NCBI GenBank assembly: GCA_041665345.1
Contig: JBAYJA010000004.1
Span: forward strand, 48,122 to 112,121
Source of the DNA: Patescibacteria group bacterium
Lineage (GTDB): Bacteria > Patescibacteriota > Patescibacteriia > PEXW01
Length of the DNA stretch: 64,000 nt
Direction: 5' to 3'
Each line of letters opens with the position of its first letter. Position 1 is the stretch's first letter. Under the pieces are notes generated by a model that had not been told where the DNA came from, did no database searches, and saw only the letters and a list, made by a program, of their open reading frames with translations. The position numbers and the translations under genes were made by a program. Shown piece by piece: positions 38,658-44,553 of this stretch.

Positions 38658-39569
38658 CTACTGCAAAAACGCCCGCAGCGCTTCGTTCTGCAACGTATCA
38701 TTGTACCCCCGGGTAAAAACTGTATTTGCATTTGCATTGTCGATATCCCATGGGGCCATATTGAGGTTGGTCTTTGGGATCAAATACGTAAGCGCCACAT
38801 TTGGTGGGGGCACAAAATGCGCTATCTGTTGGATGTAGGCCAGCTGATTTTTACGGAACGTTTTGTTCCGTACCTTGGCTAAAAATTTGCTAAAGAGTAA
38901 ATTGCCCCTATTATCCTCAGCATGCCAACTATCAAAGATAAGAATTTTGGTTGCACCTTCCTGTATAGCTTTCGCAACATGCGGTTGGTAACTGGCTGAT
39001 GCAGTTGAGTCTGAGTAGTCTTTCCCGTTGATGGTTACCCCTTGGATATGAAAAAGGTTAGTGAAGAAGGGTACTGACTTTGCCGCCCGGAGCACTTCCC
39101 AGGTGTCAACAGCATCGGTGTTGGAAAAGTATTCCAGTTGGCCCGTTTTGGAATTGGTCAAAGGGAATAGTATCTTTATTGGCGAGGTGGCAACCTTCGC
39201 CATATCCAAAGGGTTATCTTTTTTTAAAACTGTATCAATTAAGTAATCAATGTCCACAACTTTCCAAAATCGCAAAAAATTTACAAATTTCTTGGTGGAG
39301 AGTGCTTTGCACCAGACATTTTTTATTGTCTCGTGTTGCCCAGTGACGTAGCACAAACTTGTTGCCGCGCTACCCGAGCATGCAATGATGATGTCTGGCT
39401 GTATTGGGTGTAATTGACACACCGCGTACAGAGAACCTGCGGTGTAGACAGTCCGAGCGGCTCCCCCGGCCAGAATCCAGGCAATTTTTTCTTTGGGTTG
39501 TTCTGACTCGTTCATGGTTGCGAAAAATGTATTATCTACCTTTAGCGAAGGAGGAAATGCAGTCCACAT
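38658..39569 (-). CDS. Patatin-like phospholipase, paralog 2
   Basis: IAWILAGGAARTVYTAGSLYAV and IIACSGSAAT align with paralog 1 (24316..25125), including the shared block NFLRFWKVVDIDYLID versus NLWRFWKMVDVDYAVE. GGTGAGGG ribosome-binding site before ATG 39569. Confidence 0.6.
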   Translation of the reverse strand: MWTAFPPSLKVDNTFFATMNESEQPKEKIAWILAGGAARTVYTAGSLYAVCQLHPIQPDIIIACSGSAATSLCYVTGQHETIKNVWCKALSTKKFVNFLRFWKVVDIDYLIDTVLKKDNPLDMAKVATSPIKILFPLTNSKTGQLEYFSNTDAVDTWEVLRAAKSVPFFTNLFHIQGVTINGKDYSDSTASASYQPHVAKAIQEGATKILIFDSWHAEDNRGNLLFSKFLAKVRNKTFRKNQLAYIQQIAHFVPPPNVALTYLIPKTNLNMAPWDIDNANANTVFTRGYNDTLQNEALRAFLQ

Positions 39570-39768
39570 ACCCTCACCTCGCCAAGCCGAGGCATGCCTG
39601 CCCGCCGTACTCCGAGTGAAACTCGGAGGCAGGTGGGAAAGCCTCGGCTACCCTCCTTGGTTCAAAAAACTTACTCTGATGCATCTACACCGCAGCTTAG
39701 AGAAGCTGCTGCTGGGTTTTTTGGTCTTGGCTTACGGCCTACGGCTTACCGGCTTATGGCTTCCCCCC

Positions 39769-41220
39769 TCAGTTCTTCGGTCTCTCATCCACTACCCGCT
39801 TCTCCTTCAATTCGCTCTCCATGCCAATCATGCGGAGCACATCAGCGAGATCGCTCTTGCGGATACGGACGGAGACCCCGGTTTCGTTCAGCACGCTACG
39901 GTGAATGGTGTGTTCTAAGGCGCTGAAGTCCGCATGTGGCTTGGGCGCAACGTGGAGCACGAGCTCATCCACTTCAAAAGGATCGTCGTTCACTTTGCGG
40001 ATTTGGAGCTGCCACTCGTCTACGTCCGGCATGCCGGAGAGCAACGGGTAGAAAGCATTCAGATCCACCAACTCGCCCTTCACCTTGGTGAGGTTGAATT
40101 CTTTAATGTCGGAATTGCGGCGAATGTCTTTGCGGATCCTGGGCACGGTGCGGCCGCAGTGGGGACAGGGGCCGCGGTCAATCCCCTGCACCAAGTCACC
40201 TGTGCGGTAGCGCACCATCACTGTCCCACGCCAACCCAAGCTGGTAATTGCAAGTTCACCGGGTTGGCCATCCGGCACGCGATTGCCCTGCGCATCCACC
40301 ACCTCAAAGAATTCTTGGTCTGGGTAGGTGTGGTAGCCAGTTTCTTCACTGCACTGCACCCAAGCGGCCTTCCCTTCGGTGAGTGCGTACGTCGCAAAAA
40401 TCTTGGCCTCACCCGCGCCAACCTCCCGAAGCAGATCCTTCACTTTCGCCCGAAGTGCATCGCTTACTCGCTCACCGCCAAAGACAATGTACTGCAGGTT
40501 GGACCAATTTTTCTTCTGCGCCACGGCCTCCCGGAGAATGTGGTAGAAGTACCCAGGAATAGCAGTAACGACCTTGGCTTTCAGACGTTCAATGGCGTCA
40601 ATAATTTTCTGCGTACCCATCACTTTACCCCCACCGCTCTGGAGCGTCGTGAGCTGCAGGGACGAAGTGGCGTAGAAGGTTAGCCAAAAGGCCAGGTGTG
40701 GCGCGTATGGAAACGCATTCACCACCACCGCATCACCAGGAATGCCCATGGTGTTGAACAGCCGGTACGCGGATTCTTTCAGCGTGAGTAAATCTTTGGT
40801 GGTGTAGCCAACAACCGTGGGCAAAGCAGTGCGACCAGTGGTGAAGTGTAGGTGGGTGGGTTTGTACTCCCATTCCAACTTCTTCTTCACATCCTTTCCC
40901 AAAATTTTCTTCGCTACAATCCCCAAGAGTTTCCCTTTACTGGCGTACTGCTTCAGCAGGTGCTCATCTGGCTGCAGCATGAAGCCGCGGGGCCGGGCTG
41001 GGTCTTCCGCGGTTGGAGCAAGGTCAGCCTTGCTGGTGAAAGGCACTTTTTGTAAATCATCCGTGGATTGGATGTCAGCGAACCGAACATTGTGGTCGGC
41101 AAAGTGTTTGCGGAAAAACGGACTGTAGGGCAGTTCGTGACGGAAAAATGTGCGGAGCGCTCGGTTCTGGAGCGCGGCTATTTCTTCAGGGGCAAGGTGG
41201 TCCAGGGTGTGCCAATCCAT
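39769..41220 (-). CDS. Adenylate-forming enzyme, phenylacetate-CoA ligase (PaaK)/coenzyme F390 synthetase-like
   Basis: 483 aa. N-terminal ...NRALRTFFRHELPYSPFFRKHFADHNV..., then TSGTTGKP-like and ...YALTEG blocks of the PaaK/ANL superfamily. Confidence 0.6.
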   Translation of the reverse strand: MDWHTLDHLAPEEIAALQNRALRTFFRHELPYSPFFRKHFADHNVRFADIQSTDDLQKVPFTSKADLAPTAEDPARPRGFMLQPDEHLLKQYASKGKLLGIVAKKILGKDVKKKLEWEYKPTHLHFTTGRTALPTVVGYTTKDLLTLKESAYRLFNTMGIPGDAVVVNAFPYAPHLAFWLTFYATSSLQLTTLQSGGGKVMGTQKIIDAIERLKAKVVTAIPGYFYHILREAVAQKKNWSNLQYIVFGGERVSDALRAKVKDLLREVGAGEAKIFATYALTEGKAAWVQCSEETGYHTYPDQEFFEVVDAQGNRVPDGQPGELAITSLGWRGTVMVRYRTGDLVQGIDRGPCPHCGRTVPRIRKDIRRNSDIKEFNLTKVKGELVDLNAFYPLLSGMPDVDEWQLQIRKVNDDPFEVDELVLHVAPKPHADFSALEHTIHRSVLNETGVSVRIRKSDLADVLRMIGMESELKEKRVVDERPKN

Positions 41221-42527: not shown

Positions 42528-42546
42528 GGTTGGCCTGTGACCAGGA

Positions 42547-44553
42547 TTAGAACTTCGCGCTCACCAGGAGACCAACGATGAGCAACGCGACGATGTTGAT
42601 AATCTTGATCATGGGGTTGATAGCTGGGCCAGCCGTGTCCTTGTACGGATCACCCACGGTGTCGCCCGTGACGGCGGCCTTGTGCGCCTCCGAACCTTTA
42701 CCACCAAAATTCCCAGCCTCAATGTACTTCTTGGCATTGTCCCATGCTGCGCCGCCGCTGGTCATGGACACGGCGACGAAGAGCCCGGTGACAATGGAAC
42801 CCACTAGCACACCACCCAAGGCTACCGGCCCCAGCCAGAAGCCAACGATGATGGGCACGACCACAGGAATGAGCGCAGGGACAATCATTTCCTTAATTGC
42901 ACCCTTGGTCACAATGTCCACGGCGCGCTTGTAGTCTGGTTTGCCCGTGCCATCCATAATGCCCTTGATCTCGCGGAACTGGCGGCGAACTTCTTCTACC
43001 ACTGAACCAGCGACTTTCCCCACGGCTTGCATGGCGCGCGCACCAAACAGGTAGGGCAGCATGCCACCAATGAACAAGCCAATGAGCACGTTAATGTCAT
43101 CCAAGGCAAAGACCAGGGTGTGCCCACGGTCCGTAAACTCCTGCGCGTAGGCCGCAAAGAGCACAATGGCGGCCAAACCTGCGGAACCAATGGCGTAGCC
43201 TTTGGTCACGGCTTTGGTGGTGTTCCCCACCGCATCCAGAGGGTCAGTGACGTCCCGAACTTCCTGAGGAAGCTTGGCCATTTCTGCAATCCCACCGGCG
43301 TTGTCCGTAATGGGACCAAACGCGTCAATGGTCACAATAATGCCAGTCAACGAAAGCATGGCCATGGCAGCAATGGCAACGCCGTACAGGCCGGCCAGTT
43401 CAAACGAGGCCCAGGAACCAGCAGCAATTGCCAGCACAGGCAAGGCAGTGGCTTTCATGCTCACAGCCAAACCAGTAATGATGTTCGTACCATGCCCCGT
43501 GGTTGACGCTTTGGCAATATCCTGCACTGGGCGGTACCGCGTGGAGGTGTAGTACTCAGTAATGACAACGATAAGCGCTGTTACAACCAAACCCACCAAA
43601 CTCGCAAGGTAGAGTTTTGTCACATCCGCACCTGCAACATCTTTCATCAACCATTGGGTGATGGGGTAGAAAAAGATGGCCGCAATAACTCCGGAGGCAA
43701 TGAGCCCCTTGTACAGCGCACCCATAATGTTCTTCTTGCGTCCCAAGCGGACGAAGAATGTACCCAGGATGGAAGCGACGATCGAAATGGCACCCAAACC
43801 CAAGGGGTACAGAATGGCATTCTCGCTGCCCTTGAACACGAGGGCGCCCAGCAACATGGCAGCCACTGCCGTCACGGCGTAGGTTTCAAACAAGTCAGCG
43901 GCCATGCCTGCATCATCTCCCACATTGTCTCCCACGTTGTCGGCGATCACGGCTGGGTTGCGCGGGTCATCCTCAGGAATCCCGGCTTCCACTTTGCCCA
44001 CCAGGTCAGCACCTACATCCGCGGCTTTGGTAAAGATGCCGCCACCCAACCGGGCAAAAACGGAGATGAGCGAACCTCCAAAGCCCAAACCAATCAAGGC
44101 TTTGACGTCACCGGTAATCCAGTAGAATCCTGCGACACCCAGGAGACCCAAGCCCACCACCAGCAAGCCCGTGACCGCTCCTCCGCGAACAGCGACCAGC
44201 AACGCCCGAGCCAAGCCGGACTTTGCGGCTTCTGCCGTACGGACATTGGCACGAACTGCAATGTACATCCCAATGTAGCCAGCCAGTGCTGAGAGCACCG
44301 CGCCAACCACAAAGCCCAGGGCAGTGGTCCAATCCACCACTAAGCCAAGAATCACAAACACGATAACCGCAATCATGGCCACGGTGCGCGTTTGCCGGTT
44401 CAGGTAGGCTTTGGCGCCTTCCTGAATTGCCTTGGCAATTTCAATCATCTTTTCTGAACCCTGACCCAAACCCAGAATCCACTTCGCCAGCCAGAGGCCG
44501 GTGAGAATGGCGAGAACTGCGGCGACCAGCGCCATGATTATCGGAGTGCTCAT
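42547..44553 (-). CDS. hppA: Membrane-bound proton-translocating pyrophosphatase
   Basis: 668 aa. About 16 TM helices. Conserved GGG(I/L)[16 protein letters not shown] and DNVGDNVGD motifs. Confidence 0.85.

Follow-up and report, generated by a model that had tools for sequence, protein, structure and literature searches.

A conserved pairing of PlsC-like acyltransferase genes with a PaaK-fold ligase gene in Patescibacteria: a candidate acyl activation and transfer module for phospholipid salvage

In the Aas protein of Escherichia coli (2-acylglycerophosphoethanolamine acyltransferase/acyl-ACP synthetase, where ACP stands for acyl carrier protein), a lysophospholipid acyltransferase (LPLAT) domain of family PF01553 with an HX4D motif is fused to an adenylate-forming enzyme of the ANL superfamily, and free fatty acids are thereby returned to lysophospholipids. 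The pairing of AasS with PlsC provides such a route with an LPLAT and an ANL enzyme, and the Lands cycle combines a phospholipase A2, an acyl-coenzyme A (CoA) synthetase and an LPLAT. Here we analyze a locus of related composition in a 64-kb stretch of DNA (the window) from a Patescibacteria group bacterium, in which the genes for two short PlsC-like acyltransferases precede, on the minus strand, a gene for an adenylate-forming ligase with the fold of phenylacetate-CoA ligase (PaaK), labeled LIG in this work (39769..41220). From the predicted proteins and from gene order across related genomes we propose, with moderate confidence, that the acyltransferase genes and LIG, set in a conserved (nusA-)hppA-plsCx2-LIG operon, may constitute a split, Aas-like module of acyl activation and transfer that serves phospholipid salvage.

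Bacteria in the Candidate Phyla Radiation (CPR), or Patescibacteria, represent a large share of bacterial diversity and lack fatty-acid synthesis and most lipid synthesis. Their lipid-uptake mechanisms and acyl-activation enzymes have not been identified (PMC11665869). Probst et al. found that CPR bacteria carry PlsC/PlsY, yet lack PlsX, ACP and any enzymes making or using acyl-ACP, and lysolipids are enriched in these organisms (PMC7242380). The pairing of one or more PlsC genes with LIG, which is nearly universal in the CPR lineage analyzed here, is a specific candidate for the acyl-activation step not yet accounted for in these organisms, and its novelty would lie in coupling acyl activation and LPLAT transfer by means of a ligase from another clade. 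Full-text literature searches returned no publication on the LIG family or on the cluster, nor any that ties this family to CPR lipids.

Genes in the window were taken from a six-frame list of open reading frames (ORF). The five ORFs that the first-pass annotation had joined into a lipid-remodelling cluster lie on the minus strand at exactly the coordinates it gave, and its family labels hold at the superfamily level in Pfam and NCBIfam. The source organism is indeed of CPR type, as had been supposed, the nearest LIG homologues belonging to Kerfeldbacteria/Patescibacteria metagenome-assembled genomes. The conserved collinear block opens with nusA (44593..45972, minus strand; TIGR01953, 383 bits) and continues with hppA, encoding a membrane-integral pyrophosphatase of 668 aa (42547..44553; PF03030, 893.3 bits), the short-form LPLAT-superfamily acyltransferases PlsC-b (208 aa, 41901..42527; PF01553, 58.4 bits) and PlsC-a (215 aa, 41257..41904; PF01553, 66.1 bits), LIG (483 aa; PF00501, 53.4 bits) and, after a longer gap, pat1, encoding a divergent patatin-like lipase of 303 aa (38658..39569; PF01734, 35.8 bits), all on the same strand. 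The intergenic distances are 39 nt for nusA-hppA, 19 nt for hppA-plsCb, -4 nt for plsCb-plsCa, 36 nt for plsCa-LIG and 198 nt for LIG-patatin; the two acyltransferase genes overlap by 4 nt (ATGA), as the first-pass annotation also pointed out, and this can be read directly in the sequence (...GTTGGATGAAATCC...). The sole strong promoter-like site of the region lies upstream of nusA (46052-46025, TTGACA-16-TATACT, 11/12 matches). The transcription unit most likely starts at nusA, which probably shares a transcript with the genes downstream of it. In the LIG-patatin gap, a terminator scan found no intrinsic terminator and folding gave a z of only -1.49, no clear sign of a structured element; the patatin may or may not belong to the operon.

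With each GTDB species represented by one genome, a pattern scan identified at least 582 LIG-encoding stretches, of which the best 80 were compared with 10 kb of flanking sequence on either side, using tblastn with the window proteins, ORF clustering, and searches of the cluster representatives against Pfam and NCBIfam. These 80 loci (designated by L numbers) divide into 56 CPR-type and 24 non-CPR loci; counts involving hppA rest on 43 loci, and nusA-hppA adjacency was assessed on 39. The CPR-type order is nusA-hppA-PlsC(x1-3)-LIG-[patatin]-[CarS-like]-tig-AP-endonuclease-DUF218, with tig downstream of LIG in 49 loci. At least one same-strand PlsC gene lies upstream of LIG in all 56 CPR-type loci, at a distance of 300 bp or less in 51 of them, making PlsC-LIG the tightest junction of the block (33 of 43 for hppA-PlsC), and the recurrence of this arrangement in dozens of species-level genomes takes it far beyond chance. 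The number of PlsC copies is one, two or three in 11, 20 and 25 CPR-type loci, respectively, and eight loci encode a fusion of two PlsC domains in a single protein of approximately 435 aa (cluster c22; e.g. ORF 14 of L045). Fusions between PlsC and LIG were not found among the top 120 LIG homologues, in 150 representatives (leaving out P0264, of 683 aa, and P0322, of 1013 aa) or in the 56 loci.

Related genomes add other lipid genes to the cluster. A CarS-like cytidylyltransferase is encoded in 11 loci (PF01864, 114.7 bits; NF003114, 137.5 bits, under the cutoff of 148), a YegS/BmrU lipid kinase gene overlaps the start of LIG in L054 (TIGR00147, 141.6 bits, above the cutoff of 118.65), and in L076 LIG is directly followed by the gene for an acyl-CoA-dependent alpha-oxoamine synthase of the BioF/Kbl/SPT family, accompanied by a NAD-dependent reductase. 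The window itself contains no CarS-like or lipid-kinase genes, and no fab, acc or ACP genes were detected within its 64 kb; for CPR in general, de novo fatty-acid synthesis (FASII/ACP) has been reported absent (PMC7242380). The functional coupling between acyltransferase and ligase put forward in the first-pass annotation is supported by the adjacency of PlsC and LIG in 56 of 56 loci, by their pairing in another order in two Woesearchaeota loci and by the lipid genes that accompany them. Of the five genes, the PlsC-LIG pair is present in all 56 CPR-type loci, a patatin is adjacent in 11 of 56 CPR and 3 of 24 other loci, and hppA in 33 of 43. The robust unit is the PlsC-LIG pairing, with its variable number of PlsC copies, and not the five-gene set.

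The non-CPR loci stem mostly from Woesearchaeota/Nanoarchaeota, with one Omnitrophota chromosome and two uncertain bins, and encode LIG proteins with 46-50% identity to that of the window. L057 and L072, both from Woesearchaeota, show the order LIG-PlsC-patatin and L064 shows the order patatin-LIG, an independent recurrence of these associations in a different arrangement. In the Woesearchaeota (DPANN loci L055-L073), LIG is flanked divergently by PF01883 (FeS_assembly_P) and PQ-loop genes, and a PCMT methyltransferase gene follows it. PF01883 is called 'PaaD' in some surveys, and its position beside a PaaK-like gene could mislead automated calls of phenylacetate degradation.

An AlphaFold (AF2) model of LIG built from 29 homologues (predicted local distance difference test, 87; predicted template modelling score, 0.80) has the two-domain fold of PaaK-clade ANL enzymes, and the A5 (YALTE), A7 (YRTGD) and A10 (Lys472/474) motifs are invariant. 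The best Foldseek matches are BT_0428 and PaaK1/2 (4rvn/2y27), with a template modelling score of 0.86, E = 4e-34 and 22-24% identity, the likeness extending to the region of the N-terminal helical microdomain; 2-hydroxyisobutyryl-CoA ligase comes next, followed by the CoA-independent enzymes AjiA1/NatL2/ClxA. All NCBIfam models score LIG far under their cutoffs. This applies to PaaK proper (TIGR02155, 122.3 bits against 646.3; NF041878, 128.5 against 700), to the flexirubin ligase FlxY, which is nevertheless the best NCBIfam match (136 against 520), to the DVU_1553 family (116 against 300), to coenzyme F390 synthetase (TIGR03335, 61.4 against 458.7) and to FadD/AasS (NF004837, 32.2 against 476; NF052269, 30.3 against 650; NF004971, 27.1 against 847). 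LIG thus has the fold of PaaK and is not a phenylacetate-CoA ligase. An aromatic catabolic setting, which in the first-pass annotation would have argued against a role in lipids, is not what surrounds it: scores are about fivefold under the PaaK cutoffs, and no paa ring-epoxidase or beta-oxidation-like genes occur within the window or among the 56 CPR neighbourhoods.

Sequence features set LIG further apart from the PaaK clade. Its P-loop (residues 123-135) reads HFTTGRTALPT, compared with HASSGTTGKPT in PaaK, and although divergent it is present and invariant across the 29 homologues (56-80% identity). The A4/acyl-pocket segment (residues 168-179) is equally invariant and family-specific, reading FPYAPHLAFW in place of FGYGLFTGGLG. 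LIG also carries an extra insertion of about 50 residues (70-120), and an invariant cysteine at position 290 together with an invariant C352-P-H-C355 close to the domain hinge; these cysteines could form a metal site or act as acyl-accepting thiols. Finally, LIG is found in a lipid-gene setting without paa catabolic genes. More than 2,865 homologues were retrieved, the top 120 at 55-96% identity, and the family is compact, given that only 141 representatives at E <= 1e-30 were found among 1.84 billion 50%-identity representatives. LIG belongs to this uncharacterised family, which is common to CPR, DPANN and Omnitrophota. All three are ultra-small lineages that depend on hosts, and the distribution suggests that they have an adaptation in common or have exchanged genes. 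Over L007-L053, median identity to the window protein is 56.5% for LIG, 60.5% for NusA, 74% for HppA, 42.7% for Tig and 31-35% for PlsC, values that indicate strong purifying selection on LIG and conservation at about the level of NusA.

Both PlsC-like proteins score above the PF01553 cutoff (23 bits) and retain the catalytic HX4D motif, as HVGLQD at residue 39 in PlsC-b and HVGSAD at residue 39 in PlsC-a, with motif III as YPEA at residue 108 and FPEG at residue 111, respectively. The HX4D motif is present in 107 of 110 PlsC ORFs in the compared loci. The sole sequence match of either protein in the PDB is Thermotoga maritima PlsC (TmPlsC, 5KYM; E = 1.7e-5 for PlsC-a), with which they share HX4D, the (F/Y)PE(G/A) motif and a similar core size. 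These alignments start at residue 59 of 5KYM (query residue 16) for PlsC-a and at residue 66 (query residue 21) for PlsC-b, which leaves both without the N-terminal pair of helices that forms the membrane-interface motif; with 208-215 aa, compared with about 245 aa, they are approximately 40-45 residues shorter than TmPlsC at the N terminus. CPR PlsC-like proteins are short in general, at about 205-220 aa, and devoid of the TmPlsC two-helix motif. Two further differences from bacterial PlsC are the occurrence of one to three tandem or fused paralogues and a TIGR00530 score of 47-48 bits where the cutoff is 103. The Aas-type acyl-ACP-phospholipid acyltransferase model scores both proteins about as high as TIGR00530 does, and is the top NCBIfam match of PlsC-b (50 bits).

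The resemblance to Aas extends to gene order, since the succession of acyltransferase and ligase genes mirrors the order of domains in Aas, and the alignment of PlsC-b with the Aas model NF005959 begins at residue 1 of the model. The two systems nonetheless differ in several respects. Acyltransferase and ligase are separate proteins in all 56 loci and fused in Aas, the module often includes two to three acyltransferase paralogues, and its scores of 25-50 bits are far from the Aas cutoffs of 886-1221. LIG belongs to the PaaK clade and not to the FadD/AasS clade, FadD-type models scoring at most 32 bits. Aas, moreover, depends on ACP, which is not detectable near LIG and has been reported absent from CPR (PMC7242380).

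From the genes, folds, motifs and conserved gene order outlined above we infer the following route for the module. LIG would use ATP to adenylate a scavenged carboxylate, with a fatty acid as the likeliest substrate, releasing pyrophosphate (PPi), and would then hand the acyl group to a thiol carrier, presumably CoA if PaaK-clade enzymes are a guide; the BioF/SPT-type gene beside LIG in L076 is a further pointer to an acyl thioester as the product. The HX4D acyltransferases would use this product to acylate glycerol-3-phosphate and/or host-derived lysophospholipids, yielding phosphatidate and phospholipid. In relatives, the CarS-like cytidylyltransferase or YegS-type lipid kinase might feed the route or extend it toward CDP-diacylglycerol or phosphatidate, and in the window genome pat1 could supply fatty acids and lysolipids. 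The Lands-cycle-like route of the first-pass annotation retains its core in the acyltransferase-ligase pairing and, as in the Lands cycle, a phospholipase-type gene, a ligase and LPLATs stand side by side in the window. Here, however, the patatin is facultative and strain-specific, and the up to three PlsC copies, the cytidylyltransferase and the lipid kinase found in relatives indicate assembly of phosphatidate/CDP-diacylglycerol at least as much as a Lands cycle alone. The CDP-alcohol-forming cytidylyltransferase or lipid kinase of these relatives suggests that phosphatidate may be made de novo from salvaged parts, beyond remodelling alone.

The hppA product is a full-length match to PF03030 (residues 13-659 of 668; cutoff 29.7 bits) and scores 1078.6 bits on NF001951, above the cutoff of 859. 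Its subtype signature, at residue 443, combines Lys and Thr in the pattern GNTT-K-A-x-T-KG. In membrane-integral pyrophosphatases, Lys and Thr at these positions mark the K+-independent, H+-pumping subfamily, which makes this a reasonable assignment for the window protein and its original 'H+-PPase' label a reasonable one. All NCBIfam models of these pyrophosphatases are called 'sodium-translocating', so the model name does not discriminate the pumped ion. The same K+-independent signature is found in 38 of 43 related loci. The remaining five syntenic hppA genes encode a K+-dependent-type signature, GNTTAA(I/M)GKG in place of GNTTKAxTKG, which points to replacement or divergence of the pyrophosphatase subtype inside a fixed gene order. 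The hppA products of L007, L016, L021, L040, L046, L047 and others show 46-52% identity.

The link between hppA and the remainder of the module is comparatively loose. The pyrophosphatase had been counted as a cluster member, and it does lie within 300 bp of the first PlsC gene in 33 of 43 loci, but this is also the first junction to break: in the other ten loci, insertions of 0.4-6.6 kb separate the two genes (as in L022, L028, L032, L044, L048, L066 and L079), hppA then staying with nusA and PlsC with LIG. Overall, nusA lies within 600 bp of hppA in 35 of 39 loci. Since synteny breaks at hppA-PlsC with hppA remaining beside nusA, the association of hppA with the module is the weaker one. The pyrophosphatase could still turn the PPi released by LIG into membrane potential, as the PPi recycling proposed in the first-pass annotation would have it.

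The patatin fares less well as a conserved member of the cluster, which is how it had been described initially. In a blastn comparison with the closest relative, L001, whose LIG is 94% identical, the window aligns continuously over 39767-46034 at 82.7% nucleotide identity and resumes at 35669, so that LIG and tig are separated by 4,097 nt in the window and by 137 nt in L001. In L088, another close relative (GCA_964436225.1; LIG 96% identical), the order is PlsC-LIG-tig directly, with the block absent. This variable block of 4.1 kb (35670..39766) has a GC content of 0.44-0.48, compared with 0.55-0.56 in the core, and carries, besides the patatin, orf190 (38026..38598, plus strand), the membrane-like orf244 (37111..37845, plus strand) and orf255 (35718..36485, minus strand), none of which has a Pfam or NCBIfam match. 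The gene for trigger factor, tig (34315..35610, minus strand; Trigger_N, FKBP_C and Trigger_C domains), marks the downstream edge of the conserved synteny. Four look-ups of pat1 orthologues (50-65% identity) revealed unrelated neighbours (priA; lepA/divIC; adenosine deaminase; efp/rpsR/ssb) and no conserved setting. We interpret pat1 as an accessory, strain-specific and recently acquired neighbour of LIG.

The pat1 product exceeds the PF01734 cutoff weakly (35.8 against 27.7 bits) and, when aligned with 15 related patatins, shows the oxyanion motif (GGAAR) and conserved Ser and Asp columns. It lacks the canonical G-x-S-x-G elbow, which reads A-C-S-G-S, and the D-G-A/G motif, which reads D-S-T, and a sequence search of the PDB gave no match; its activity is for these reasons uncertain. 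Its 61 homologues are 275-285 aa long, so translation likely starts at Met19, about position 39515. Elsewhere, patatins of family c13 directly follow LIG in 11 CPR loci and a patatin lies beside LIG in three DPANN loci, suggesting that this neighbourhood arose several times. The window encodes a second patatin, pat2 (24316..25125, plus strand; PF01734, 38.6 bits; elbow A-N-S-A-G), which shows 46% identity to L015_10 and which most c13 patatins match better than any other window protein; it is closer than pat1 to the patatin type found directly downstream of LIG elsewhere in CPR.

A number of observations weigh against lipid salvage as the function of the PlsC-LIG pair, and several of them would fit a frozen ancestral order nusA-hppA-PlsC-LIG-tig, in which LIG is an aryl- or short-chain acid-CoA ligase unrelated to membrane lipids and the acyl donors of PlsC are made elsewhere. 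Within the CPR clade, the housekeeping genes nusA and tig keep their places in the block just as faithfully, and part of the synteny is accordingly lineage inertia. Characterised PaaK-clade enzymes, the solved relatives of LIG among them, all act on aryl or short acids and none on long-chain fatty acids. Outside CPR, no PlsC gene is found beside LIG in 21 of the 24 loci, most DPANN LIG genes included, and L078 (9914..12795) and L080 (509..3337) harbor two tandem LIG paralogues (46-47% identity) behind an SSF sodium:solute symporter, which in L078 lie upstream of a NUDIX gene and of genes for the beta/gamma subunits of a 2-oxoacid:ferredoxin oxidoreductase, a setting that looks like aryl- or short-acid metabolism. 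On the acyltransferase side, PlsC-b and PlsC-a do not reach the TIGR00530 cutoff (47.2 and 48.4 bits against 102.95), and average-linkage clustering of the 110 PlsC ORFs gave no split by position of the kind that orthogroups of sn-1 and sn-2 specialists would produce. As regards carriers, tblastn with E. coli AcpP revealed no ACP in the window or the 80 loci, a weak negative, and no CoA-salvage gene was found near the cluster. Inertia does not readily account for the greater resistance of the PlsC-LIG junction to rearrangement (300 bp or less in 51 of 56 loci, compared with 33 of 43 at the hppA-PlsC junction), for the renewed pairing of the two genes, in another order, in archaeal L057 and L072, or for the repeated presence of patatin, CarS-like, lipid-kinase and BioF/SPT-like genes beside LIG in separate lineages; and the invariant FPYAPHLAFW segment is unlike the GYGLFTGG of PaaK. 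We consequently deem a frozen order with an unrelated ligase unlikely. Should LIG prove to be a small-acid CoA ligase, the locus would still represent a conserved synteny with a mis-annotation ('phenylacetate-CoA ligase') worth correcting.

If the PlsC-LIG pair does work as a unit of acyl activation and transfer, its product might be something more specialised than bulk phospholipid, for instance a lipid capped by an aryl or hydroxy acid, an N-acyl amino-acid lipid or a surface polymer carrying acyl groups, in the manner of flexirubin/aryl-polyene and ornithine-lipid systems, in which a ligase is combined with an LPLAT acyltransferase. The best NCBIfam match of LIG is FlxY, the PlsC proteins have weak matches to OlsF (17-23 bits), the PaaK clade includes ester- and amide-forming ligases that operate independently of CoA (AjiA1, NatL2, ClxA), and the PlsC proteins are short, with no counterpart of the two-helix membrane motif of TmPlsC. 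All these scores are, however, far under their cutoffs (136 against 520; 23 against 620), the 56 neighbourhoods are free of ketosynthase, ACP and dehydratase genes and of any other polyene/polyketide genes, and the recurring accessory genes encode glycerophospholipid enzymes (CarS-like, lipid kinase, patatin). Near-universal presence and NusA-level conservation argue for a housekeeping role, and we consider a specialised product decidedly unlikely. Salvage could also be organized as a full five-gene Lands cycle, in which patatin (as phospholipase A), LIG, two lysophospholipid acyltransferases and a pyrophosphatase recycling PPi would form a single co-evolved remodelling unit. The collinearity of all five genes in the window, the patatins next to LIG in CPR and DPANN loci, the adjacency of hppA in 33 of 43 loci and the lysolipid enrichment of CPR (PMC7242380) are consistent with such a unit. 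We nevertheless find it highly unlikely, since neither of the two nearest relatives has the block that carries pat1, pat1 orthologues lie among unrelated genes and about 200-250 nt separate pat1 from LIG, hppA goes with nusA where the order breaks, five loci have another pyrophosphatase subtype (GNTTAAxGKG) in the same position, and many reactions yield PPi.

A variant of the PlsC-LIG salvage module, to which we assign a slim chance, would dispense with the carrier altogether. LIG of CPR, DPANN and Omnitrophota might then be the long-sought acyl-activating enzyme of ultra-small symbionts auxotrophic for fatty acids, working without ACP and possibly without CoA, and handing acyl-AMP or an acyl-Cys intermediate (C290/C352-x-x-C355, LuxE-like) directly to the short PlsC proteins, devoid of an anchor, that the adjacent genes encode. 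The suggestion is prompted by the invariant cysteines, by the existence of PaaK-clade enzymes that need no CoA and by the reported absence of ACP; if true, a carrier-independent transfer from LIG to PlsC would be a new route of phospholipid assembly common to both domains.

Other parts of the window show features of their own. A 2.9-kb segment (46035..48960) that is missing from L001 carries a split transposase with HTH_32/HTH_28 and rve integrase-core domains, whose ORFs (46078..46545 and 46424..47038, minus strand) are apparently frameshifted; it looks like what is left of an insertion sequence, and lies a short way upstream of the promoter region of nusA. The regions 615..5207 (minus strand), 6656..17932 (minus strand) and 18846..21767 (plus strand) encode proteins with cohesin and dockerin domains, an M12-like metallopeptidase that bears a dockerin as well as Big_7 repeats, and the product of an ORF of 3,758 aa, and these proteins suggest a cohesin-dockerin surface assembly in a CPR genome. 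The window also contains TrmB regulators and a single tRNA, and is CPR-like overall.

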